Counted from the stretch's first letter, positions 4,895-62,449 are shown. The stretch is DNA of 64,000 nucleotides from an uncultured Bacilli bacterium (GCA_944363935.1 CALVVT010000073.1:4226-68225), one strand, 5' to 3'. Made by a program: numbers and translations. The notes: a model not told the origin generated them from the letters alone.

Positions 4895-6937
4895 TTACTT
4901 TTTTAATATTTTTGGCCTTTCTAAACATAACATAGGTTGATTATACACTATCAATTGATGTTGAGCTCTAGTACATACAACATAATATAAATTTCTTTCT
5001 TCTTCTGTATAATAATTATCAGGTTTAGTATATGCTATAACGCCGTCAAATTCTAATCCTTTAGCTATATATGAAGGCAAAATAGAAATTTTGTTTTTTT
5101 CTATAGTATTTTTGACAAATATATTCTCTGAAGAATTAGCCACAAGTCTTTTGTGAAGATTAATTATCTCTTTATCGTCTTTTGTAATAATAGCTATTGT
5201 TTGCATACCATCATTTTTCATTTTCTTCAAATCGCTAATAATATCATTTATATCATTACTTTCTCTTTTTAAAACAGAAAAACCGTTTTTACCTCTAATT
5301 GAAGTGATATTATTAATATTTAAAATTTTACTAGCAAATTCAATTATCTCTGAACTAGATCTATATGTTTTATTTAATTCTATATAATTAGCTTCATTAT
5401 CAAAAATGATTTTTAATTCTTTTAATGATTTATATGTACTATCAGGATTTATAGATTGGTTAATATCACCTAAAATAGTGAAAAAAGCTTTAGGAAAAAT
5501 TTTCTTTAATATCCAAAATTGTAATGAAGAATAATCTTGAGCTTCATCAACAACCACGTGTTTAACTTCACTATTATATGGAAAATCATTTAACTGAAAA
5601 TAGATGTATATAATTCCCGTAATATCATCATAATATAATTTATTATTCTCTCTAATAATATTTTTCTCTTCTAAAAATCCTTTAAAAATATGAACAGGAT
5701 CAAGGTCAATATTTATTTTTTCATTTAAAATGTTTTTAATCTTTGTTTTATATTTCTTTAAAGGAACATTAATACTATGACAAATGTATTCAGCAATTTT
5801 TTCTATTCTTTCGGTAAAAGGTAATTTTTTATACTTAATCATTAATAAATCGTTTAATTCTAAATGATTAAAACAAAAGCCATTTAAAGTAATTCCTGTT
5901 TTAAAAATATGCTTTTTTAAATAACTATCAAGATATTTATCTAATTCTTCTTTTGTGTATAGGTTTTTTACTATACTCTCATTTCTTAATTCGTTATATT
6001 TACGTTTTAAAAAATCTGAAAATGTTTCTAACTTTTTATATTTTTTTAAATAAGTTTTTGCAATATCACTAAAAGTAGTATTTAAAACATTTTCTTCACC
6101 TAATTCAGGTAAAACGTCAGAAATATATTCTGAAAAAACATTATTAGGAGAAAATATTAAAATATTTTTAGAAGTTAAACCTTTTTCTTTATATAATAAA
6201 TAAGCAATGCGGTGTAGGGCAACAGAAGTTTTACCACTTCCCGCAATCCCTTGAACAATTAAATATTTATCTTTCGTATTCCTAATAATTTGATTTTGCT
6301 CTTTTTGAATTGTTGTAACAATATTTTTCATTTTATCACTTGAGTGAGAAGATAAAACTTCTTGCAACATATCATCATCAATATTAATATCATTTTCAAT
6401 AATTCTTTTTAATTTACCATCTTCGATTTTATATTGTCTTCTTAAGGTAATTTCACCATCTATCACTCCCATTGGAGCTTCATAACTAGCTTTTCCAACC
6501 GTATAATCGTAAAAAAGGCTAGAAATTGGTGCTCGCCAATCAAATATATAATTTTTATTTTCATTATTAAGACCATATAATCCTATATATACCTTAATTG
6601 TTTCATCCGGTAATTTAAAATCTATTCTTCCAAAATAAGCCTTATCTAATATTTTTTCATATTTAAATACTTTTTTAATTTTAGCATTAGTAATTTCTAC
6701 TTTAGCATCAGTGTCATTTAATAAATTACCATACTCAAGATCACTTAAGCTTTTACAATCATTCCATATATATTTTTTCAATTCGAAGATTTCCTGTTTT
6801 TCTTTGGTAATTTTAACATCAATTTCTTTAATAAATTTTTTTGCCACTTTTTTCACTTCAGTTAAATATTTATTTTCCTCTTTTAATGTATTATTATTAA
6901 CATTCATAGCATCACCTGTTAAATAATATTTTAACAC
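4895..6937 (-). CDS. helD: HelD-like UvrD/Rep superfamily helicase (DNA helicase IV / RNA polymerase recycling factor family)
   Basis: 680 aa. Walker A GIAGSGKTSVALHRIAYLL, DEAQD box (VVVDEAQDYS), UvrD-type C-terminal motifs and a HelD-like N-terminal domain. Confidence 0.75.
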   Translation of the reverse strand: MLKYYLTGDAMNVNNNTLKEENKYLTEVKKVAKKFIKEIDVKITKEKQEIFELKKYIWNDCKSLSDLEYGNLLNDTDAKVEITNAKIKKVFKYEKILDKAYFGRIDFKLPDETIKVYIGLYGLNNENKNYIFDWRAPISSLFYDYTVGKASYEAPMGVIDGEITLRRQYKIEDGKLKRIIENDINIDDDMLQEVLSSHSSDKMKNIVTTIQKEQNQIIRNTKDKYLIVQGIAGSGKTSVALHRIAYLLYKEKGLTSKNILIFSPNNVFSEYISDVLPELGEENVLNTTFSDIAKTYLKKYKKLETFSDFLKRKYNELRNESIVKNLYTKEELDKYLDSYLKKHIFKTGITLNGFCFNHLELNDLLMIKYKKLPFTERIEKIAEYICHSINVPLKKYKTKIKNILNEKINIDLDPVHIFKGFLEEKNIIRENNKLYYDDITGIIYIYFQLNDFPYNSEVKHVVVDEAQDYSSLQFWILKKIFPKAFFTILGDINQSINPDSTYKSLKELKIIFDNEANYIELNKTYRSSSEIIEFASKILNINNITSIRGKNGFSVLKRESNDINDIISDLKKMKNDGMQTIAIITKDDKEIINLHKRLVANSSENIFVKNTIEKNKISILPSYIAKGLEFDGVIAYTKPDNYYTEEERNLYYVVCTRAQHQLIVYNQPMLCLERPKILKK

Positions 6938-7060: not shown

Positions 7061-8812
7061 TTATTCAAGTATAGCTTTAATTCTTCTAACACCAGCACTA
7101 CTAGCTTCTTCTTTCTTTATTTTAAAATGTCCAAGTTCACTAGTATTTTTAACATGAGGGCCTCCACATAATTCTTTAGAAATATTTCCAATACTATAAA
7201 CTGTAACAATATCAGGATATTTGTCTATAAACATACATTCAGCACCTGATTTTAAAGCATCTTCTTTACTCATTTCTTCACTAGTTACTTCTAATCCTTC
7301 TTTAATCCAATTATTTACTAACTGTTCTACAGCTTCTTTTTCTTCGTCAGTTAATTTATGATCACAAGCAAAGTCAAAACGCATTCTTTCTTTAGTTATA
7401 TTACTACCTTTTTGATGGACACTATTACCAATAACTTGTTTTAAAGCCGCATTCAATAAATGAGTTGCTGTATGATATTTAGTTTCAATAATACTATTAC
7501 CTGATAAACCACCTTTAAATTTACCAGCGGCAGCGGTTCTTGATTTTTCTTGATGCTCCTTAAATTTTTCTTTAAAACCTTCTGTATCGACAATAATATT
7601 TTCTTCTTTAGCAAGTTCTTCAGTAAGTTCAATTGGAAAACCATAAGTATCATATAATTTAAACGCTAAATCTTTATTAATTTTATTATCAGTTAAATTT
7701 TTCTTTATTTTTTCAAACTCTTTTAAACCTTTTTCTAAAGTTCGATTAAATTTATTTTTTTCGTTTTTTAAAACTTCTAAAACAACATCTTTATTTTCTT
7801 TAATCTCATGATAATAATTTTCATATTTAGTCATGATTAATAAAGCTATTTCTTTATCCCAGTCACTATTAATATCGATATTTAATTTTTTCGCATGTCT
7901 AATAGCTCTTCTTAAAAGTCTTCTTAAAATATAACCTTGATCGGTATTACTTGGTTTTATACCAGCAGGGTCAGCAGCAATAAAGACAGCGGTTCTTAAA
8001 TGATCAGCTATTATTCGCATTGATTTTTCATGACCTTGATAAGGTAAATTAGTAATTTCTACAATTTTATCAATAACATCTTGCCAAATAGAACTTTGAT
8101 AGTTATCATTTACCCCTTCTAAAACAGCCGTTATTCTTTCAACTCCCATACCAGTATCAACATTTTTACTTGGAAGTTCAGTAACATTACCATCTTCGTC
8201 TTGATAAAATTCCATAAAGACATTATTCCAAATTTCAACCCATCTATCGTCTTCAGGATTAAATTTTTCAGGAATTTCGTCGTCACTTCTAAAGTAAAAT
8301 ATTTCAGTATCGCCTCCACAAGGACCACTAGTTCCAGCTATCCAGAAATTATCTTCTCTTCCTAAATAAGCAATTCTCTCTTCTTTAATTCCAAGACTTT
8401 TCCATTTATTTGCAGATACCTCATCCCGTGGTATTTTTTCGTCGCCTTTATAAACAGTAATAGCTAGTTTTTCTAAAGGAATATTTAAAACTTTAGTTAA
8501 AAATTCAAAGCTGTATTCAATACTTTCATTTTTAAAATAATCTCCTAAACTCCAGTTTCCTAACATTTCAAAAAATGTATGATGGGTTGTATCTCCAACT
8601 TCGTCTAAATCATTGGTTCTAATACATTTTTGATAATCACAAAGTCTCGTTCCATAAGGATGATGCTCTCCCATTAAATAAGGAACAAGAGGCTGCATTC
8701 CTGCAGTATTAAATAATACTGAAGGGTCATTTTCCGGTACAACTGGGGCTGAAGGAATCTGTTTGTGACCTTTACTAACAAAATATTCTATAAATAAATC
8801 TTTAATGTTCAT
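7061..8812 (-). CDS. alaS: Alanine--tRNA ligase, short form: catalytic domain plus editing domain, no C-Ala domain
   Basis: HHTFFEMLGNWSLGDYFK, DTGMGVERI and YDTYGFP match the AlaRS catalytic core. The C-terminus has the editing HTATH...CGGPH zinc motifs. The protein stops after GVRRIKAILE at 583 aa, whereas canonical AlaRS is about 870 aa. Confidence 0.8.
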   Translation of the reverse strand: MNIKDLFIEYFVSKGHKQIPSAPVVPENDPSVLFNTAGMQPLVPYLMGEHHPYGTRLCDYQKCIRTNDLDEVGDTTHHTFFEMLGNWSLGDYFKNESIEYSFEFLTKVLNIPLEKLAITVYKGDEKIPRDEVSANKWKSLGIKEERIAYLGREDNFWIAGTSGPCGGDTEIFYFRSDDEIPEKFNPEDDRWVEIWNNVFMEFYQDEDGNVTELPSKNVDTGMGVERITAVLEGVNDNYQSSIWQDVIDKIVEITNLPYQGHEKSMRIIADHLRTAVFIAADPAGIKPSNTDQGYILRRLLRRAIRHAKKLNIDINSDWDKEIALLIMTKYENYYHEIKENKDVVLEVLKNEKNKFNRTLEKGLKEFEKIKKNLTDNKINKDLAFKLYDTYGFPIELTEELAKEENIIVDTEGFKEKFKEHQEKSRTAAAGKFKGGLSGNSIIETKYHTATHLLNAALKQVIGNSVHQKGSNITKERMRFDFACDHKLTDEEKEAVEQLVNNWIKEGLEVTSEEMSKEDALKSGAECMFIDKYPDIVTVYSIGNISKELCGGPHVKNTSELGHFKIKKEEASSAGVRRIKAILE

Positions 8813-9347
8813 AATCCACCTCTTCTAAAATTTTTCTGGTTTTTAAAATTAAATTTTCGGTATTTCCATCGTTTTCAAGCAAATAATCATAATTTTGATA
8901 ATTATCCAAAGCATGCTCGGTAATATGTTTTTTTTGTTTTTCGGTTAAATTATTTTCAAAACCAGGTCTTTCTACTTTTATAATAAATACATCTTTAAAT
9001 TTACTTTTAGGAATGTCTAACTCATTAGGAAATCTGCCACCAGATATAACGATAACATCAAAGAAATAACTATAAACAACAATATCTTCACATAATCTAT
9101 TTATAAAGAAATCTTTATTTATTTTTTCTCTTACTATATCTGTCCCAATAGTTTGTAAAAGTTCCCTAGGTTTTGTTTCATCCCTACCATCCCAATTAGT
9201 AATTTTCATAGCATAATTTTTTATATAATCAGAAAAACCTAATCTTACTACTTTTTTATTTTTATTTTCATAATAATTTACTATTTCTGTTGCCACAGTA
9301 TCTTTACCAGTTCTAGCTTTACCAGCTAATAAAAATATTTTTGTCAT
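8802..9347 (-). CDS. P-loop NTPase, deoxynucleoside monophosphate kinase-like
   Basis: N-terminal LAGKARTGKDT Walker A typical of dNMP-kinase-like proteins. It overlaps the alaS start by 11 nt and is the first ORF after the T-box leader. Confidence 0.5.
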   Translation of the reverse strand: MTKIFLLAGKARTGKDTVATEIVNYYENKNKKVVRLGFSDYIKNYAMKITNWDGRDETKPRELLQTIGTDIVREKINKDFFINRLCEDIVVYSYFFDVIVISGGRFPNELDIPKSKFKDVFIIKVERPGFENNLTEKQKKHITEHALDNYQNYDYLLENDGNTENLILKTRKILEEVDYEH

Positions 9348-13477: not shown

Positions 13478-15261
13478 CTCCCATTATAAAGGTCTTCAAA
13501 CTCATTTAAATATTTTTCAAACATATCAACTGCACTTTGAATAACTTCTGGTTTTGTTAAATCCACACCAGCTACTTTAAGTTCGTCAAGTGGATACATT
13601 GTACTACCAGTTTTTAAAAATTGCAAGTAATTTTCGACAGCATTTTCTTTATCACTTAAAATATCATTAACTATGTGGCAAGCAGCTGATAGACCAGTTG
13701 CATATTTATAAACATAAAAATTGTAATAAAAATGCGGAACTCTTTGCCATTCGTATGCGATATCTTCGTCAACCAAAGTATTTTCACCAAAATATAATTT
13801 ACATAAATCATAGTAAATTTTATTAAACTCTTCGGTAGTCAATACTTCTTCATTATCGGCTTTTTGTCCTATAATATTTTCAAATTCAGCAAACATTGTT
13901 TGTCTATAAATGGTTGATTGAAATAACCCTAAAAGTTCATTTAAAATATATAATTTTTCTTCTTTAGTTTCCGCTTTTGCTAACAGATTATTAGCTAATA
14001 ATAATTCATTAACAGTTGAAGCAACTTCAGCTACAAAAATCGAATATCCAGAATACTGATATGGATTTTTATTAGCATAATAAGTATGCATAGAATGACC
14101 TAATTCGTGAATTAAAGTAGAAACATCACGATATTTTCCCATATAATTAGTTAATATAAAAGGATTACTATCATAAGCGCCCCCAGAATAAGCTCCACTT
14201 ACTTTATTTTTATTAGGATAAAAATCTATCCAGCGTTCTTTGAAAGCTTTTTTTACAGTATTTACATAATCTTCCCCAAATACCTTAACAGTATCAATAA
14301 TAACATCATAAGCTTCTTTTAAGCTATATTTTTTATCATTTTTATTAACTAAACTAACATACATATCATATAAATGTAATTCGTCTAATTTTAAAACTTG
14401 TTTACGAAGTTTATAATAACTATGTAATTTATCTAAATTCTCATGAATAACATTAATTAAATTATCATAAACTTCTTCACTAATATTATCGGCAAATAAA
14501 GCGGCTTCTCTACTACTTTTATATTTATTTACTTTACTAATTACCGCTAAAGACTCAAAATGATTTTTTAAAATTAATGCATATGTATTATTAAACTGTT
14601 TATAAGTCTTGTAAAGTTTTGAAAAAGCTTCTTTTCTAATACTTCTATCATTGTCGCTTAAAAAATTAATATAACTTGATTCATTTAAAACTTGCTCTTT
14701 GCCATCTTTTAAAACAAAACCAAAAGACATATCACTATTTGATAAAACACTTGCAAGTTCGTCATTATCAGCAAAAGCTTTAGATATAGTAGCCATTAAT
14801 TTTTCTTCTTTTTTTGATAAGATATGTTTTTTATAACGATATTCTTGTTTTAAAATAAACTCATAATCTTTTTTTAAAGCTGGCAGTTCTTCATAAAATT
14901 TAACAATTTTTTGATAATCTACTTCCATTAAATTAGGACCAAAGCTACTAGTTTTTTGATTAAATTTATTAAGTAAATCTATAACTATTTGCTTATATCC
15001 TTGATATTTAGTATTAGTTATATCCTCGTCGGCTTTTTGAAAAACATATTTATAAATTTTTTCTAGTTTTCTATTTATTTTATAATTATTTTCTAAAGCG
15101 TTATAAAGATTGCTTGCACTATCTAACATATTATCAAAAGTTAAAACGGTAATTTCTTTTTTTACATCCTCAATGTCTTTATCAAGTTCAGTTTCACTTT
15201 TATAAATTGTGCTTAAATCCCACTTATATTTTTCTTCAATTTCATCTCTTGTTTTTTCCAC
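13474..15261 (-). CDS. pepF: Oligoendopeptidase F (M3B metallopeptidase)
   Basis: 595 aa with the HELGHSMH zinc motif and PepF-like architecture. It sits between dnaK and dnaJ. Confidence 0.85.
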
Positions 15262-15308
15262 AGTTTTCTCCTTTTCTTTATAATGAGAAAGTTCTAGTTT
15301 CCTAGAAC

Positions 15309-17129
<1,821 letters not shown>

Positions 17130-19854: not shown

Positions 19855-20250
19855 CTATGATAACTGGTATGGATTATTTTGACTCCCATTACCTCCAGTT
19901 ATTTTAACCGCTTCATTATTACTATTAGTAATACCAATAGTTTCTAATTTCGCATCAAATGTTCCTTTATTTTCGACAATAATACTATATTCTACATAAT
20001 CTCCTTTTTCATATAAATTAGCTTCTAAACTTGCTGATAAATCATTATAAGTGTTTTTAACATTTTCTCCCGTTCCATTTGTATCAGTTACGTCGGCACT
20101 TATTATTTTAATATCCCAAGTACTACTAATATCAGTTGTCCCCGTAATATTAATACTTGTTTTAAAAGCCGCATAGCCTATCCCCATTAAACATAAAATG
20201 CATATTAAAATAAATATAACAATTTTATTTCTTCTTTTTTCCCTATACAT
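19855..20250 (-). CDS. Small secreted protein of the GIGYAAF family (TasA/SipW-cognate-like signal; C-terminal GNGSQNNPYQLS)
   Basis: 131 aa, MYREKRRNKIV..LMGIGYAAFKTSINITGTTDISSTWDIKI. Paralogous to 38317-38664, 32982-35899 and 60137-62094. Confidence 0.75.
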   Translation of the reverse strand: MYREKRRNKIVIFILICILCLMGIGYAAFKTSINITGTTDISSTWDIKIISADVTDTNGTGENVKNTYNDLSASLEANLYEKGDYVEYSIIVENKGTFDAKLETIGITNSNNEAVKITGGNGSQNNPYQLS

Positions 20251-20391: not shown

Positions 20392-20580
20392 ATGATAAAA
20401 CAATATAGAGAAAAATGTGGGTTTACTCAAGAACAATTAGCTGAAATTTTAGAAATAAGTTGGAGACAACTTCAAAGAATAGAAAAAGATGAAACTAAAA
20501 CTAAAATAAGCACATTAAAAAAAATAATTAAAGTTTTAAATATACCCGACGAAGAAATAATTAAATTAATGAAAAAATAG
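20392..20580 (+). CDS. XRE-family HTH transcriptional regulator (62 aa)
   Basis: GFTQEQLAEILEISWRQLQRIE helix-turn-helix. Divergently transcribed from the family gene 19855-20250. Confidence 0.75.
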   Translation: MIKQYREKCGFTQEQLAEILEISWRQLQRIEKDETKTKISTLKKIIKVLNIPDEEIIKLMKK

Positions 20581-30443: not shown

Positions 30444-31550
30444 TTAAAATTTATTTTTATATAAAAAATATTTAGTATTAGCGACCATAAAATAACCATT
30501 ATAACTAGCTAATACTTGTTTATAATTAGATTTTTTTTGTTTTTTCAGTCGTTTTAATTTTCTTTTCACTCGTTTTTTAGTTTGATTATTAAGTAAAATT
30601 AATAATTTTTTTTCTTTAAGTTTAAACTTATATCCTAAAAAATTTACCCCTTTATTTAAATCATATATTTGGGTTTTTTTATTTAAAGATAACCCTAATT
30701 TTTGAACCTTTCGATTAATCTCTACTAAACACTCTTTTAAAAATTCTTTATTATGATGAATTAAAATAAAGTCATCCATATATCTTATATAATATTTAAT
30801 TTGTAATTTTTCCTTAATAAAATGGTCTAGTTCATTTAAATAATAAATGGCTAAAATTTGACTCGTTTCATTACCAATTGGCAACCCTTTACCTTTTTTA
30901 TATCTAGGCAAATAATTTAGTTCTTGAAACTTACAAAAAATATCTGGGATGCTTTTCTGTCTTAATTTTTCTTTTTCTTTAGCTATTAAATTATCAATCT
31001 GATTATTAATATATTTAGCGTCAGTACTGTCGATAATATTTTTTAAAACATCAATTATTTCAAAATCAGGAATATCTTTAATTAATTTTTGTAATAAAAT
31101 TTCATGATTAATATTATAAAAATACTTACTAATATCACATTTTAAAACGTATATTTGATCATAATTTTGTTTTAATTTATTAATATATTTTTTTATATAA
31201 TAAATACCTGCTTTAGTACCTTTACCACTTCTAGTAGCAACATTTGTTTCCACTAATTTAGGAATTAAATAAGGAATTAAAACATATTTACTGATCAAAT
31301 GATTAACTATTTTATCTAAAATTCTTTCACTCATAACTATTCGGTATTTCGGTTCAGATATTAAAAATAAACTATATTGTCCGTGAGTATAAGTTCGAGA
31401 CTTTAATAAGTACAAAATTTTAGTTATATTAGAAGAAAAAGCCAGTTCAAATCTAACTAACTTTTGCTGATGACAGGTATTTAAACGAATTTTATAATAA
31501 ATTTTCAGTATTTTATCTATTGAAAGAAGATTATCATAAGTTATTTTCAT
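30444..31550 (-). CDS. Diversity-generating retroelement reverse transcriptase
   Basis: 368 aa RT domain. Motifs: EPKYRIVMSERILDKIVNHLI, the DGR-specific GLPIGNETSQILAIYYLNELD (I/LGxxxSQ in place of the group II QG) and YIRYMDDFIL (YxDD). There is no maturase or endonuclease domain. Confidence 0.9.
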   Translation of the reverse strand: MKITYDNLLSIDKILKIYYKIRLNTCHQQKLVRFELAFSSNITKILYLLKSRTYTHGQYSLFLISEPKYRIVMSERILDKIVNHLISKYVLIPYLIPKLVETNVATRSGKGTKAGIYYIKKYINKLKQNYDQIYVLKCDISKYFYNINHEILLQKLIKDIPDFEIIDVLKNIIDSTDAKYINNQIDNLIAKEKEKLRQKSIPDIFCKFQELNYLPRYKKGKGLPIGNETSQILAIYYLNELDHFIKEKLQIKYYIRYMDDFILIHHNKEFLKECLVEINRKVQKLGLSLNKKTQIYDLNKGVNFLGYKFKLKEKKLLILLNNQTKKRVKRKLKRLKKQKKSNYKQVLASYNGYFMVANTKYFLYKNKF

Positions 31551-32182
31551 TAACTTTTAATACTTTCTAAAACATATTTATCGTTAATTTTTTTATAATT
31601 ATAAGTTTTTAAAGTTCCATTATCTAATATGTTATTTAAATTATCTTTATTATATTCACCGATATCATTATTATCTAAATTATAAACATTATTATCTTTT
31701 ATATAAGCAATTTTTACATTTAATTCTAATTTATTATTATCATTAGTATAACCATATAATTTAGACACATATTTATTTTCACAAGAATACTTTTCTCTAG
31801 TAATAACGTCATTATCTAAATTATAAATATAACCATTATAAACATAATTTTGAACATTTGGCGCTTTAACATCACCAAGGATTTTTTTAGTACTTGTTTG
31901 ATAATCTTTTAAAGAAATTTTATCTTTTAATAAATTATCCTTATTCATTTGACCAAAAATTAAATCTAAAAGACTTTTATCTTCTAATTTATCGACATTT
32001 CCATCATTAATAACCGAGCATTCATTAACAGCAATCGCATCATACAAATCTTCAGCAACCTCGTGTTTTACTAAATTGCTAAAAGTTTGCGCTAGTTCTT
32101 TATTTTTTACTATCAATATTAATACTGTAATTAACACTATAATAATCAATAAAATAATAATTATTACTTTTTTATTCTTCAT
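31550..32182 (-). CDS. Membrane-anchored hypothetical protein encoded between avd and the RT
   Basis: 210 aa with an N-terminal TM and an Asn/Asp/Tyr-rich ectodomain. It is translationally coupled to avd (11-nt overlap) and to the RT (shared nucleotide). Confidence 0.5.
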   Translation of the reverse strand: MKNKKVIIIILLIIIVLITVLILIVKNKELAQTFSNLVKHEVAEDLYDAIAVNECSVINDGNVDKLEDKSLLDLIFGQMNKDNLLKDKISLKDYQTSTKKILGDVKAPNVQNYVYNGYIYNLDNDVITREKYSCENKYVSKLYGYTNDNNKLELNVKIAYIKDNNVYNLDNNDIGEYNKDNLNNILDNGTLKTYNYKKINDKYVLESIKS

Positions 32183-32525
32183 TACTAGTCTCCCTCTTTC
32201 TTAAACCATTAATCATTTTTCTTATTTCAATTAAAAATCTACCAATAACTGTAAACTGGTGATAACTTATTATTTTTTTATCCAATGAAACTTTTGTATA
32301 AAAGTCAAGCATCGAAAGTTCTACTGATAAATCTTTTAAATATTTATCTTTAATTCGTATACTAGTATTAATGTTATAAGCAAAAATGTTTTTAATTAAA
32401 GAATAACATGTTTTTTCAATATTGTTTTTTAATACAATTTCTTTTTTAGGATAATTAATAAGTAATTTATTAATATAATTAATTGTTTTATAAGAATTAT
32501 TTAAAATTTTAAAATTATAATTCAT
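32172..32525 (-). CDS. avd: Accessory variability determinant (Avd-like four-helix-bundle protein)
   Basis: About 118 aa starting at MNYNFKILNN with RBS GGAGA (the ORF track extends it to 32558). The size, basic composition and position between TR and RT match DGR Avd. Confidence 0.65.
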   Translation of the reverse strand: MNYNFKILNNSYKTINYINKLLINYPKKEIVLKNNIEKTCYSLIKNIFAYNINTSIRIKDKYLKDLSVELSMLDFYTKVSLDKKIISYHQFTVIGRFLIEIRKMINGLRKRETSNEE

Positions 32526-32767
32526 TTTTTCTCCTTCAATAAGTGTGGCTGGAGACAAAAAGTCTCCACCACTAATATAGCGATAGTTATATAAATACTT
32601 TAATAGTCATATAACGTCTATATTATCTTTTTAGGCTTTAATCCAAGGAATTAACCTTGTTTCCAATCTAAATTAGATTATTGCTTTCGCAACTACTTCC
32701 TCTGGTTATGAGCCGTAGCCAAATAACATCACGGTTCATTAGTAAATAATCACTAATTGTAGTAGGA

Positions 32768-32877
32768 AATTGGGCGGACGCCGTTGCTATTCCAAGTATT
32801 AGTGTTAGTGAGCTCGCCCGTGGCAGTCACGTACATCTCATTAGCATTGAACCAATTGTTGAAGTTCGACGGCGACA
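32768..32877 (-). repeat. DGR template repeat (TR)
   Basis: 110 bp, 95/110 identical to the VR. On the coding (minus) strand it encodes SPSNFNNWFNANEMYVTATGELTNTNTWNSNGVRPI, rich in AAC/AAT codons, and ends in GGCGTCCGCCCAATT. Confidence 0.92.
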
Positions 32878-32919
32878 AAACTGTACAAACTTATAAGGTT
32901 AATCCCTGTATGCGACGTT

Positions 32920-32949
32920 GGGCCAAAAATGAAGAGTCATTTTTGGCCC
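32920..32949 (-). promoter_or_regulatory. Perfect 13-bp stem / 4-nt loop hairpin between the target gene stop and the TR
   Basis: GGGCCAAAAATGA-agag-TCATTTTTGGCCC with no U-tract. A second 11-bp hairpin overlaps the stop codon at 32973-32999. Confidence 0.7.
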
Positions 32950-32981
32950 ATCTGCTCGCTATTTTGTTTTCGTAGTTGTTT

Positions 32982-35899
32982 CTACGAAACAACAAATGGG
33001 TCTTCAATTGTTCCGCTTCCAGTTACTGTTAGATTTTCAGAATTTAGATTGATAACTGGGCGGACGCCGCGGCTATCCCAAGTACCAGTGAAAGTGAGCT
33101 CGCCCGTGGCAGCCACGTACAGCTCATAAGCATAGAACCAATTGCTGAAGAACGACGGCGACATGGTCCAGTATGTAGTTCCCGTATATAAATAATATAA
33201 AGAATTTACTGATCCATTTATTCCACCAGCCATATTTACTTCGTCAGCAGTGATTAAACCAACTGAATAATTTAATTTCTTATTTCCTCTATTTACACTA
33301 AAACTATCGTTTTCTTCACACATTAAGGTTGGTCCAAGTTTTCCTTGAGAGGCCCAATTCAAAAATCTTTCATATCCATATATTGTTGGATTTATTCCAT
33401 ACCCTAAATTATTATAAGTTCCACTATTTTTAGAAGATTTATTTCGGTTATTACAGAATACTGCATCTTTACTTATTTTATCATTAACACTTGTTAAATT
33501 ACTTTGATACCAACTATCTAGATAATCTTTCATAGTACTATCATTTACATTACTATGTGCTTCTTCCAAACTTGTCGTTCCATAAGCTTTTGCTTTTACT
33601 GTCATTGAAGTACTACTATTATATTTTGTTGTATAAAATAGTCTTTGACATGAAGCTGAAGCCGAAGTACTAAAACAGGTATAATATCCTACTTCATTAT
33701 TTGAAAGGGTTCCTGTATGTAAATCTCCTGATAATTTATAACCTCTACTGTTTTTATCAAAGGTATAACTTGTTCCAAAATAATATTTCGCACTGCTTGA
33801 AAGACTTGTATAAACAAACGTCATATCACCACTATCTGTTTCCACAAAATTATTAGCGTTTCCATACATATATCCTACATAAGTATTGTCATTGGTATAT
33901 GAATTAAAAGCACTTGTTCCTACCTGTCTATTACTACTTGCTTCACCATTGGTATAAGGTGTGGTTCCATCATATATCATTCTTATACTTCCATCACCAT
34001 TTACTCTGATTATTCTCCAGTACATATTATTAAATTTTACATAGTTTCCCCCAACACTTCCGCGGTAATAATATGTCGTTCCATCATTATCACTTCCAGC
34101 ATACATTCCAACTCCAGTTGTATCATAACTAGCGACTGACTGGGTATAATCATATTTTGTCATATTATAAGTTATCTGACCAGTTGAACTATTTGTACTT
34201 GTCGTTACATTAGTTATTTTGTATAAAGTCGTACAAGAAACATTTGTAGTTAAACAAGTATAATAATCTCCACTACTATAATCTATGCTTGATGGATCTT
34301 TTAAACTATAGCCTGTTAAAGTATATATTCCTGTTGTTTTATTAAAAGTATAGCCTGTTCCAATATTATCATAATATATATGACTATGAACCGTTGTATT
34401 ACTTGCATGAACTTCATTATATGAAGCACTTGGACTTGTAACCATAAAGTTTGGATTACCTTTACCTTCTATCTCTTGTTTAGCTAGTTCTATATTACTT
34501 TCTTTAGCTTCACTGGCTATTATACAATCTCCAAAATTATCTATATCATTATGTTCACAAAATGCTGCATGTCTTATTGTTGTTGTTTTGGCCATCGTTT
34601 CTGATATATTTCCAGCTTTATCTTTTACATATACTGTTACTAAATAATCGCCTTCTTCAAGAGTAGTAAATGTATAGTTTGGATTACTAGTTTCAACATA
34701 ACTTTTACCCCCATCTTTACTATAATAGTATGTAGATACTCCGCTTTCTTTATCATTTGCATCTACTTCAATAGTCATTGTGTCATCGTCTGGAGTTACT
34801 ATTACATTTGTTACTTCTGGAATATTACTATCAACATTATAATTATCTGTACATTTAATTTCTTCATTTCCTACTACATCTACGGCTTTTACACAGACTT
34901 TTTGACTATCTTTATTACTAGTTATTTGAACCATCCCTTTATTATCTGTAAGTTCTAGTTCTTTATCTGGAGTACAATCACTATTTCCTATACAGTATAA
35001 AGCTTTAGCTACTTTATCATTATCACTAACTTCAACATTTATATCAAGTCCCTTATACCAATTATTTTCACCTTTTATATTATCTCCCATTACTAATAAT
35101 ACTTTTGGTTTCGTTTTATCTAAAGTTTTAAATTTTGTACTAGAAAATACTACTTCTCCTTCTTCGTTTTCAGCTTTAACATAAAGCATATATTCTGTAT
35201 TTGGTTTAAGATTATGAATAGTATAACTATTATTATTTGTCTCATACCATTTATCATTATCTAATGAAAAATAGTATTTAATAGCATTTTCGGCGGTTAT
35301 TTTACTTGTTACACTTGTTTCATTTGGATTTACTTCTAAATCACTTATTTTAAATCCTTCTACTTCTATACTATCTGCATCTGAAAAATTAGTACTATTT
35401 CCTTTTTGAACATACTCTAATACTGTAGAAAAACTAAACTTTGTTTGTTCAGGTTGACTAGTTATATCTTCATTATATTTTAAAATAACATTAAACTTTT
35501 TTTCTGTTTCCGATAACAATTCTTCTTTAGCGGTTATCCCTTCTACCGAATATATAAGAACGTTTTGTTCTGGCGCATTTATTTTAATACTATCTAAAAC
35601 AGCATCTAAAGTTCCTTTATTTTCAACCGTTATTTCATAAGTTATACTATCTCCTGGCGCATAAAAGTTAGCTGTCATATTAGCCGTTAAATCATTCCAA
35701 TTTGGCTCTGTAGCATTTTCAGCATTGCCTTCGGTCTTTATAGTTTCAACATTTGTTATTCTAATATCCCAAATACTTGTTATATTACTGGTACCGTTAA
35801 TATTTAGTTTACTACTAAAAGCGGCATACCCTATTCCCATTAACATTAATAAACAGCATAAACCTAATATAACTACGTTGTTCTTTTTTCGTCTATGCA
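32982..35899 (-). CDS. DGR target: large secreted surface protein of the GIGYAAF family with repeated beta-rich modules and a C-terminal VR-bearing (C-type-lectin-like) domain
   Basis: About 972 aa from MHRRKKNNVVILGL (RBS AAGGAGG; the ORF track starts 34 nt upstream at 35933). N-terminus LMGIGYAAFSSKLNINGTSNITSIWDIRITN. The VR is 24-60 residues from the C-terminus. Confidence 0.85.
33055..33164 (-). repeat. DGR variable repeat (VR) at the 3' end of the target gene
   Basis: Encodes SPSFFSNWFYAYELYVAATGELTFTGTWDSRGVRPV. The 15 substitutions relative to the TR are all at TR coding-strand adenines (for example AAC to TTC, AGC or CGC, and AAT to TAT, GGT or GAT). It ends in the GC-rich GGCGTCCGCCCAGTT. 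Confidence 0.92.
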
Positions 35900-36002
35900 T
35901 AACATACCTCCTTATTTTATTTAAGTATAGCACATTTGTTGGGGGTAATGCAAGTATCTTATTTAGAAAAATATTATTTTATAAAATTATGGTGGTGGTA
36001 CT

Positions 36003-36212
36003 ATGATAAAAATAAATATCGAAGAACTTCTTAAAGAAAATGGAAAAAGTAAATATTGGCTTCGCCAAAAGATGAACATAACTTCCAGAAACCTTAATAA
36101 AATTATTAGAGGTGAAACTAATTCTATTTCTTTCAAATATATTGAAGAATTTTGTTACTACTTAAACTGTACTCCAGGAGATTTAATAACTATTGAAAAA
36201 GACAGGCCCTAG
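36003..36212 (+). CDS. XRE/Cro-type HTH regulator (69 aa), divergent from the DGR target gene
   Basis: KYWLRQKMNITSRNLNKIIRGET helix-turn-helix. Confidence 0.7.
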   Translation: MIKINIEELLKENGKSKYWLRQKMNITSRNLNKIIRGETNSISFKYIEEFCYYLNCTPGDLITIEKDRP

Positions 36213-38316: not shown

Positions 38317-38664
38317 TCAATTTTGTAATTGATAAGCATTATTTTCTGAACCATCACCTGATATAATTTGTACTTCTGGAGATAATGTTACTGTATATAA
38401 GGCATAATCTCCGGGACTTACTAAATTAGTACTAAATGATGCTGTAAGTCCATTCTCATTATCATAACTTGGTTCTACTGCATTAGTTGCTTTTCCATGT
38501 AAGTTACTTTCGATATTAGTTATTCTTATATCCCAGTTACTACTTATATTACTAGTACCAGTAATATTAAGCATACTACTAAAAGCGGCATACCCTATCC
38601 CCATTAATAATAATATTGAACATAATCCTAGTATAATTAAATTATTTTTCTTTCTCCTATTCAT
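38317..38664 (-). CDS. Small secreted GIGYAAF-family protein (about 115 aa)
   Basis: MNRRKKNNLIILGLCSILLLMGIGYAAFSSMLNITGTSNISSNWDIRITNIE...SGDGSENNAYQLQN. The start was chosen at the M with an RBS (the track start 38727 is an extension). Confidence 0.75.
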   Translation of the reverse strand: MNRRKKNNLIILGLCSILLLMGIGYAAFSSMLNITGTSNISSNWDIRITNIESNLHGKATNAVEPSYDNENGLTASFSTNLVSPGDYALYTVTLSPEVQIISGDGSENNAYQLQN

Positions 38665-38881
38665 TTTGATTTTCCTTCCCGTCATTATAATAATAACAAG
38701 TATTTTTATACTTCCTATTATTACCATTTATTTAATTACTATACATTTACTTACACTATAACATTTTATATTACTTTTTGTAACATAAAATGTATTATAT
38801 TTTTAATGTAAAATTTACTCCCCTTAATTTTAAAGGAATTATATAGTGTAAAGTTGACAGAAAAAAAGATAAGCATTTAAC

Positions 38882-60072: not shown

Positions 60073-60136
60073 CTTATCACTTCCTTATTAAATTCTACCA
60101 TTATAAGAGAAAAAAATCTAGCATTATTACTAGATT

Positions 60137-62094
60137 TTATAGACTTAACTGGTACGGACTTGAACTTGAACCATTCCCCGAAGTTATTTTGACATTTGGG
60201 GATAAGGTTGCTACAGGGCGGACGCCGAATGAAAAACCGCTACTTCCAGTAGTTGACATATTTCCTTTAGAAGTTATATAAATTGCAAAGGACACATATG
60301 GGTTTATTGTCCAATAATTTGTGCTATTAAATAAATAGTTTGTTAAATTACATTCATCATAATTATTACGTAACAAATTATTATTACTACATTTTTCAGT
60401 ATTAGAATTTGCCCGTAAATAATCACTAAAATTAATTAGTCCTACCTTTCCTTCCCATATATCACTATTTTCAATTGGAATAATTTCTTTTAATTCATAA
60501 TTAAACATCCCATTTTCATTTCCTATACCATAACCGTAATTAATTATTTGGTTTTGTGATAACAAGGTTAATTCATTACTATAATATTCTGTATTTAAAT
60601 ATGTATTTAATGTTGCTGTCCTCCATCTATCAGAATCCGCTTCATTCCATACCATATTATTAATAATATCTTTTTTTACTATTTTTATAGTGTTATCATT
60701 TGTATTAATTCGCACTATTCTCCATAGCTCATCATTAAAATTAATATAATTGTTTGGATTAGTTCCCCGATATGTATACACATTCTCTTCATATGAGTCT
60801 TTATATAACCCATCTCCACTTGTCACTAGTTGGAGACTATCAATAAATTCTTCCACTGTTTGTGGTATTGTTATATTATATGATGCACTTTCCATATTAA
60901 CACCATCACTTACTCTGGCTACTAATGTACCACTTTCCGTAAATTCTACTTCTTGATTTTGAGTTGCTGCAGTCCATGTACCATTATCTTTTTGATACTC
61001 GTATGTTAATCCTTCTCCTTCTGGATATGTTATAGTAACAGTTTTTCCATTATCTGTTTCTTCTTCACTAAAGGTCGGTACATTTAATTCTTTCGTACTT
61101 ACATTATATTCTTCACTTTCTACTTGTAGGTTATCTCTATTGGTTACTCTTACTTTTATTTTATGACTTGTATTTTGAGTAAGTCCTGTAAAGGTATATG
61201 TATTACTATCACCTGTTATATATTCCTCATTATCTATTTTATATTCGTATTTTACTATTTCTCCATCTTCTTCTATAGCTGTAGTTACAACGGTTATAGA
61301 ACTCGTTGTACTACTGGTACTTACATTATTTATAACTGGAGGCGTTGTATCTATTTTTCTAAATATCGCATAAAGTGTTACATTATTACTTGGCATACTT
61401 AAACTTTCTAAACCTACTGTTGCTCCTTTATCCGTATTCCATCCCATAAATTCATAGCCTGCTTTAGTTGCTGTATATTCTAAATTAACATTACTTCCTT
61501 CGGCTACATAATCATTTATAGCATTTGTGCTTTCTCCGCCATTAGTACTATAATCATAAGTTACATAATAATCATTAGCTGGTAAAGGATTATCACTATC
61601 TTGAGCTACATCTATACTTATATCTAAATCGACACTTATATTTTCTTCGATACTTGTTACATCACTATTAAATTCTACTTTAACTTGTAACTCTTTTGTT
61701 TCTTTACCTTTGATTACATCTCCTTTAGTTAGTCCTGATAAAGTAAAGGTTATATACTTATTTTCTTTATAATAAGTATTTATTTTCTCTATTCTCGCAT
61801 CTACACTTCCTCTATTTTCTATAGTTACTGTATATAATGCATAATCTCCAGGTCTTTTTAAACCAGTACTAAATGATGCATATAGTCCATTAGTATTATC
61901 ATAACTTGGTTCTTCGATATCTTCAGCTCCATGTAACTCACTTTCTATATTAGTTATTCTAACATCCCAGGTACTTGTTATATTACTTGTTCCTGTTATA
62001 TTTAATTTACTACTAAAGGCTGCATATCCTATTCCCATTAATACTAATATAGAACATAGCCCTACTATAATTAAATTATTTTTTTAGTTCGCAT
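60137..62094 (-). pseudogene. GIGYAAF-family large surface protein; paralog of the DGR target. The signal-peptide region is frameshifted at an A7 tract, a candidate phase-variable switch
   Basis: ATG (rc 62092-62094) with RBS GGAGGA gives MRTKKII then a stop. One extra A in the A7 run (fwd T7, 62079-62085) would give MRTKKNNLIIVGLCSILVLMGIGYAAF..., in frame with the 633-aa ORF. The C-terminus has FGVRPV and GNGSSSSPYQLSL. Confidence 0.7.
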
Positions 62095-62134: not shown

Positions 62135-62449
62135 TTGAATTACATCACATGCGTGGACTATTTGTCCATATATAAAAATAAGATTTTTCGAGATAATAAA
62201 GATAGGTGGTGGCGGATTATGAAACATGATGATAATTATTATTATAATATTATTAGAAATAATATTAAAAAATATAGAAAAAAAGCTAATTTAACTCAAC
62301 AAGAACTAGCTGATAAAGCTGGTATAACTATGAACTATATTGCTAAAATAGAAAGTCAAAAAATGCAAAGAGGTTTTAGCATTGTTATACTTGGTAGAAT
62401 AGCTGATGCTTTAAATATAGATATTAAATTATTATTTGAAAATAATTAA
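62135..62449 (+). CDS. XRE-family HTH regulator (104 aa), divergent from the frameshifted family gene
   Basis: LTQQELADKAGITMNYIAKIE helix-turn-helix. Confidence 0.75.
   Translation: MNYITCVDYLSIYKNKIFRDNKDRWWRIMKHDDNYYYNIIRNNIKKYRKKANLTQQELADKAGITMNYIAKIESQKMQRGFSIVILGRIADALNIDIKLLFENN

Follow-up and report, generated by a model that had tools for sequence, protein, structure and literature searches.

Is a gene that ends in the same GC-rich element as the TR and VR of a DGR a second target of that DGR, a former target, or a gene that was never diversified? The question arises in a 64,000-nucleotide stretch of DNA from an uncultured Bacilli bacterium (the window), which carries a DGR with its target gene and, far from both, a paralog of that target. 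A sequence-only reading of the window had taken the paralog for a homologous lectin-like C-terminus that is not a homing target, either a decayed VR or an ancestral scaffold, and had suspected turnover of DGR targets within the gene family.

The resident DGR and its target

The resident DGR and the gene that it diversifies are made up of the following features.

30444..31550, minus strand: reverse transcriptase (RVT_1, 1.1e-18)
31550..32182, minus strand: 210-aa ORF without Pfam match
32172..32558, minus strand: bAvd (Pfam, 1.6e-12)
32771..32877, minus strand: TR; all 14 VR differences lie at TR adenines
32982..35933, minus strand: DGR target gene, 983 aa
33057..33163, minus strand: true VR, 107 nt, at the 3' end of the 983-aa target gene

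The cassette is complete, with a reverse transcriptase, Avd and one TR that differs from its VR at adenines only (14 of 28 A positions, 0 of 65 non-A positions). The homology between TR and VR begins at a 5' boundary element, TGTCGCCGTCG, which occurs in the window only at these two sites, and it stops directly after a GC-rich core of 12 nt, CGGCGTCCGCCC in gene sense, past which 9 of 21 nt agree. The IMH of BPP-1 has a GC-rich core, as nearly all DGRs are predicted to have (PMC3240598; Wu et al. 2018, PMC5758913), and since the TR-VR homology ends right at the 12-nt core, the latter sits where the BPP-1 IMH has its GC-rich first part.

Within 34 bp of the true VR there is no GC-rich hairpin with a GRNA loop. 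The nearest perfect hairpin (14-bp stem, 4-nt loop) is found at 32919-32950, between the target stop codon and the TR and about 108 nt from the VR end, and an 8-bp hairpin at 32968-32993 overlaps the stop codon of the target gene. Neither fits the BPP-1 cruciform consensus in distance, loop sequence or composition, and both could be terminators. The 210-aa ORF, which lies between avd and the reverse transcriptase gene and has a hydrophobic N-terminal segment, is without counterpart in the other fetched DGR loci.

A related locus, L005 (OZ007022.1), encodes an Avd 75% identical to that of the window and carries, in region 14700-16320, an ortholog of the window target with its VR end at 14847. 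Both hairpins have counterparts there with changed stem bases. Downstream of the VR lie four TR-like units (ends at 15264, 15418, 15788 and 16047) that share a 5' end, ACGCCGTCGAWCTTCA, and a 3' end, CTACGGCGTCCGCCCAATTTCC, and differ in their interiors. TR1 is the only one that is the cognate of the neighbouring VR, 8 of their 9 mismatches being at A, and TR4 is nearly A-free; for TR2 to TR4, neither the paralog nor any other fetched head proved to be a cognate VR. The spacer of about 210 nt between TR and avd in the window (32558-32770, minus strand) is conserved in L005 at 15420-15680 and again at 16050-16315, with the common pattern AATTTCCTACTAC..ATTAGT..TTTACTA.TGAACCG…; it is presumably a structured part of the DGR RNA after the TR, and in L005 the unit of TR plus spacer appears to have been duplicated.

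The paralog: a shared core without a cognate VR

The paralog lies on the same strand, and its features are as follows.

60137..62038, minus strand: callable ORF, 633 aa, from an internal Met start
60680..62094, minus strand: conserved stalk (signal-peptide leader, N-terminal domain, Flg_new, Ig/Fn3-like region, DUF6273 start)
62079..62085, minus strand: A7 homopolymer in the leader; A8 would restore MRTKKNNLIIVGLCSILVLMGIGYAAF
60140..60853, minus strand: divergent DUF6273 (C-lectin-like) head, aa 396-633
60230..60313, minus strand: VR-equivalent, 28 codons beginning with the W of YWTINP and ending just ahead of TTC; AT-rich, GC3 0.21, not cognate to the TR
60212..60229, minus strand: FGVRPV, codons TTC GGC GTC CGC CCT GTA
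60216..60227, minus strand: IMH-like GC core CGGCGTCCGCCC, the same 12 nt that close the resident TR and VR at their 3' ends
60140..60211, minus strand: C-terminal tail after GVRPV, ATLSPNVKITSGNGSSSSPYQLSL

The core is identical at 12 of 12 nt in TR, VR and paralog. The paralog copy, at plus-strand positions 60216-60227, lies about 5 nt from where the sequence-only reading had put it (60221-60232); the count of three occurrences made in that reading is right, since the plus-strand 11-mer GGGCGGACGCC, with at most one mismatch, is found in the 64-kb window at exactly three sites, 32772 (TR), 33058 (VR) and 60216 (paralog). The analogous placement about 30 codons from the stop was also correctly seen, the Gly of GVRP being the 29th codon before the stop in the paralog and the 28th in the true target.

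Such a match might arise by coincidence from conservation of the protein motif alone, as the first two positions of the codons for G, V, R and P, eight in all, are bound to be G or C in seven cases when Arg is CGN. The codons chosen speak against this origin. In the window, GGC, GTC and CGC have frequencies of 0.109, 0.041 and 0.030, which gives GGC GTC CGC a joint probability of 1.3e-4 once G-V-R is given; with the preceding TTC for Phe (0.106) it falls to 1.4e-5. Four rare C-ending codons stand here in succession in a gene whose GC3 is 0.14. In addition, GGGCGGACGCC appeared in 0 of 100 dinucleotide-preserving shuffles, and in the whole 64-kb window, with a GC content of 27.3%, the 12-mers with at least 11 G or C are confined to the TR, VR and paralog sites. 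Because of the codon probability of 1.3e-4 given the amino acids, the match is one of DNA and not a by-product of GVRP conservation, and a coincidental GC element, the objection that came with the first reading, is hardly credible.

Upstream of the core the likeness to the TR ends. In a codon-guided alignment, 39 of the 56 aligned non-A positions differ between paralog and TR, with 15 nt in gaps, which bears out the earlier remark that the two differ at many non-adenine positions. By blastn the TR does not match the paralog, the stretches shared upstream of the core are only two chance A-rich 8-mers, and a search of the window did not find TGTCGCCGTCG in the paralog. The VR-equivalent is 5 codons shorter than the window VR and 3 codons shorter than that of the closest VR-bearing relatives. 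With the core and the 125 nt upstream of the element as a blastn query, no TR-like partner was found in the window and the loci fetched at that stage.

Downstream, 7 of the 21 nt after the core are identical between paralog and VR, and no GC-rich hairpin follows the paralog core, the sole inverted repeat being imperfect and AT-rich (60104-60147). The hairpin weighs less here, as the true VR is also without a canonical close one. In BPP-1, homing requires of its recipient a full IMH, a hairpin and 5' homology over 8 bp or more (PMC3240598). The paralog has two features of a recipient, the identical core and its place in the last 30 or so codons, and lacks the 8 bp or more of 5' homology to TR-derived cDNA needed for upstream integration, so that of the three BPP-1 requirements it retains the GC core only (PMC3240598). 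The paralog is therefore not a VR cognate to the resident TR; the adenine-only differences that would have made it a second VR of that TR are not what the alignment shows.

The paralog might still be an active VR of another, AT-rich TR outside the window, the two TRs being alike only in their 3' GC core. The core is, after all, the sequence in which the TR of this DGR lineage ends, multi-TR systems exist in the lineage to judge from the four-unit array of L005, and the sequence examined covers 64 kb of an 85-kb contig. Against this, the cassette of the window has a single TR, the paralog is without the GC-rich 5' boundary element, its VR-equivalent has a GC3 of 0.21 compared with 0.55-0.87 in the 35 VR-like heads of the family survey described below, its leader is frameshifted, and the window and the loci fetched at that stage hold no TR-like match. 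We consider such an outside template unlikely.

A mosaic of stalk and head

The true start codon of the paralog, an ATG at 62092-62094 behind the RBS GGAGGA, is out of frame with the main ORF. One further A in the homopolymer would restore MRTKKNNLIIVGLCSILVLMGIGYAAF, a normal signal-peptide leader typical of the family, and in the other family genes of the window the A runs at this position are interrupted. The frameshift could reflect a pseudogene, a phase switch or an assembly error, and is consistent with gene decay. A recurrence of the frameshift in homologs, which would suggest phase variation, found no support: the homologs checked are in frame, and one of them (P0147) merely starts with TTG.

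Pfam finds the Listeria-Bacteroides repeat (Flg_new) and weak Ig/Fn3 signals in the paralog. Its head matches PF19789 with 20.4 bits, below the cut-off of 23.5, with an E of 5e-4 and a match that runs from position 4 to 170 of the 172 in the profile; in an alignment of the head with 26 homologs, 26 of the 27 members match this profile, and most of the best among 914 homologs of the C-terminal 240 aa carry DUF6273/PF19789. In the PDB, the AF2 model of the head (pLDDT 92) strongly matches one entry only, 9qa6 (E=2.5e-7), the IgA peptidase of T. ramosa, which has DUF6273 as its N-terminal domain (PMC12402451); classical C-type lectins give weak matches. According to published work, DUF6273 is a C-lectin-like domain found in DGR targets, and the VR lies at its C-terminal end (PMC10743442, PMC11792537). 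The paralog and the DGR target, 31% identical over 71 aa at their C-termini, belong to this same DUF6273/C-lectin-like family, and the first description of the paralog as a homologous lectin-like C-terminus and no homing target holds. Extra conservation of the tail at the DNA level, as of a conserved IMH, was also looked for; its synonymous codon identity is no higher than that of the domain.

The two parts of the protein have different relatives. Over the N-terminal 395 aa, more than 10 proteins (P0122-P0136) share 86-94% identity with the paralog, and the stalk (62094-60680) has 86-89% nucleotide identity to loci L085, L086, L089 and L090. This similarity ends abruptly at about 60672-60680, right after a conserved NPNNY..WRI motif, and the flanking DNA is unrelated. 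The middle of the head (aa 442-603) has at most 45% identity to any homolog found, and 22-29% to the heads of proteins with the same stalk or the same tail. The 87 nt from the element to the stop are closest to those of the VR-bearing L073, L085 and L048 (nucleotide identity 0.67-0.76, for a family median of 0.485), and GC3 is 0.40 in the last 30 codons as against 0.14 gene-wide (p=0.0014). The paralog, a mosaic gene, belongs to a large family of secreted proteins whose members recombine.

One and the same stalk bears a VR-like head in L085 (TCG CCG ... GGC GTG CGC CCA), partly decayed heads in L087 ORF2 and L090, and fully AT-adapted heads in L089 (CAA ATT AGA CCA) and L086 (AAA GTT CGT CCA); the heads are therefore exchangeable cassettes. 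The stalk module of about 1.4 kb stands in L085, L086, L089, L090 and the window in unrelated genomic contexts and before unrelated heads, with a common breakpoint, which suggests, from these comparisons, either a cassette-like exchange of heads or a concerted evolution of stalks. As a positional ortholog of the paralog L086 was rejected, its flanking genes being different, and no head among the homologs found is orthologous to that of the paralog. Metagenome contigs, scanned for the same gene with an exact 21-mer, gave no match, and a degenerate 20-mer gave chance matches in GC-rich genomes only.

Two mini genes of the family, at 19855..20250 and 38317..38727 (both minus strand), hold nothing but the leader and N-terminal domain, joined directly to the extreme C-terminal tail, and end in …ITGGNGSQNNPYQLS and …IISGDGSENNAYQLQN, respectively. 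They look like internal deletions, from YTVT… to …TLSP.., in which the stalk and the whole DUF6273 head are gone. Small, divergent genes of the Xre-type HTH class precede three of the four family genes of the window (62219-62449, 36003..36212 and 20392..20580, all plus strand), an arrangement seen also in L087, L088 and L089.

Probable former targets in the family, and known systems

From uncultured Bacilli MAGs, in which a genome has many paralogs, 79 loci were fetched; the survey of GC3 covered 89 genes of the family. Outside the VR-equivalent, GC3 is about 0.17 everywhere; within it, GC3 is 0.55-0.87 in 35 genes, which we call VR-like, and at most 0.30 in 38 of the 89. A neighbour-joining tree built on the domain outside the VR has VR-like and AT-rich heads intermixed throughout. 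Because the two states are so mixed, gain or loss of DGR targeting is frequent in the family, and the turnover of targets suspected at the outset is now well supported, as both kinds of head are interspersed in the tree and stand on the same stalk.

The paralog groups in the tree with genes of the MAG E0_DP__bin64. Four of these (L048, L068, L070 and L073) have GC-rich VRs with a common core, and since all four are built on one fixed non-A scaffold (ATG TCG CCG ... GGC GTC CGC CCA), a single TR serves at least four VRs in that genome. In the same clade, L029 and L019 have become AT-ameliorated at nearly every former GC third position and have kept GGC GTC CG[CT]: L029 has lost 8 of 9 GC-rich synonymous sites upstream and 0 of 3 in the core, L019 8 of 8 upstream and 1 of 3 in the core, and in the paralog 4 of 4 core codons end in C. 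Across the AT-rich heads, the core codons have a GC3 in excess (0.25 vs 0.16, p=0.012), and the core Arg is CGN in 11 of 17 compared with 26% expected (p=9e-4). This is the pattern expected of slowly decaying VR fossils, and fits the idea that many AT-rich heads may be former VRs of different ages.

The locus L024 (Firmicutes CAG:822) has an intact-looking DGR (Avd 7516-7860, reverse transcriptase 7829-8935, TR at about 6716-6818) with a family gene directly upstream, whose VR (region 6360-6830) differs from its own TR by many non-A mismatches, mostly C to T or A, and by a 3-nt indel. L024 shows an intermediate state of VR decay. The head of L053, from another genome, matches the L024 TR better, with 19 of 31 mismatches at A.

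Alternatively, the head of the paralog could be an ancestral scaffold, never diversified, with a core older than DGR targeting and a TR and VR derived from such a gene. AT-rich heads are indeed common (38 of 89 genes), and most members keep xVRP in their protein sequence. On the other hand, codons at 1.3e-4 would neither arise nor persist in a native gene at 27% GC, the core is the exact end of the TR, and the fully AT-adapted heads of L089 and L086 encode the conserved xxRP with common codons. We give this origin slightly less credence still than a template outside the window. Since these rare GC codons are those with which the resident TR ends, the evidence favours, without proving it, a former VR or a recombinant relic over a never-diversified scaffold; of the two origins first offered for the paralog, the decayed VR thus stands in this widened form, and the ancestral scaffold is disfavoured.

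It is likely, in our view, that the core is a fossil of the 3' boundary of a VR, in a gene that the resident DGR has ceased to diversify, and that the core most likely has no function today. Both the descent from a once-active VR and the present lack of function are what we infer from the comparisons above. The paralog would once have been a VR of this DGR lineage, and homing would later have stopped. The AT-rich head may then have decayed in place after the end of homing, or it may have been swapped in by recombination with a 3' junction just upstream of TTC GGC GTC CGC; the latter variant rests on the 87-nt tail, whose protein motif is conserved family-wide.

That three to four rare codons are intact beside a fully ameliorated stretch of 28 codons is unexpected under uniform, neutral, AT-biased decay, and an intact core beside an ameliorated stretch is found also in L029, L019 and L043. 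Such uneven decay could reflect selection on the core, or its repeated refreshment, rather than passive survival. One might accordingly speculate that selection keeps the core as a latent homing site, or that abortive or short-patch DGR events at the IMH core refresh it; stalk-shuffled heads could then be recruited again when a matching TR arises, for example from multi-TR arrays of the L005 type. The core has stayed intact while other GC-rich synonymous sites were ameliorated in L029, L019 and the paralog, and it matches the resident TR exactly. These three genes belong to one clade, however, and are not independent cases; the core has been lost in most AT-rich heads; the 21 nt past it are not VR-like in the paralog and no GC-rich hairpin follows; and in the BPP-1 model the core alone is insufficient (PMC3240598). 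We hold a latent or refreshed site to be improbable, to the same degree as a template outside the window, and retain the fossil of a VR boundary as the preferred reading; such a remnant is nothing unusual in a gene family that shuffles fast.

The gain and loss of DGR targets is thus visible at codon resolution in a large family of surface proteins from uncultured gut Bacilli. In a genome of 27% GC, the GC-rich IMH core is a readable fossil of past homing, by which former targets could be counted. The mosaic of stalk and head suggests that head swapping and DGR mutagenesis jointly vary these proteins. If the core is selectively retained, it would be a minimal recognition element that keeps paralogs recruitable, which would be relevant to the engineering of DGR targets.

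The likeness of the core to the IMH of BPP-1 and other DGRs lies in a GC stretch that is identical in TR and VR and marks the 3' limit of adenine mutagenesis (PMC3240598, PMC5758913), in its place within the last 30 or so codons of a C-lectin-type target, and in the divergence of TR and VR right past it. The core differs from that of BPP-1 in its length, 12 nt and not 14, and in the paralog it is all that is retained, the 21-nt part, the hairpin and the 5' homology being missing altogether. Several paralogous targets of one retroelement lineage are known from the multi-target DGRs of Treponema denticola, Stenotrophomonas and Legionella (reviewed in PMC5758913), to which E0_DP__bin64, with at least four VRs on one fixed scaffold, compares; unlike in those systems, the window holds one cognate target, the paralog being a former target or none. 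DUF6273 targets are known from gut phages and Faecalibacterium prophages (PMC10743442, PMC11792537). They have the same family of head domain, with the VR at the DUF6273 C-terminus and a reported C-type-lectin-like fold, but the window genes are chromosomal and encode multi-domain surface proteins with signal peptides, not phage tail proteins, and the head of the paralog is below the Pfam cut-off and is not diversified.

The closest parallel in kind is with the cyanobacterial CLec paralogs of DGR variable proteins, such as all3226 of Nostoc PCC 7120, which have remnant TR-VR homology (PMC7517822). There too, paralogs of the target are dispersed and show graded residual homology to the TR, and they have been read as duplicates past diversification (PMC7517822). 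In the window, by contrast, the remnant is the 12-nt core, the genome is that of an uncultured Bacilli bacterium at 27% GC, and the paralog is a mosaic of stalk and head and no simple duplicate. Target paralogs with remnant TR-VR homology, multi-target DGRs and DUF6273 targets are thus already known; specific to the present case are a remnant shrunk to the IMH core, its legibility at the level of codons owing to the low GC content, and the mosaic of stalk and head.
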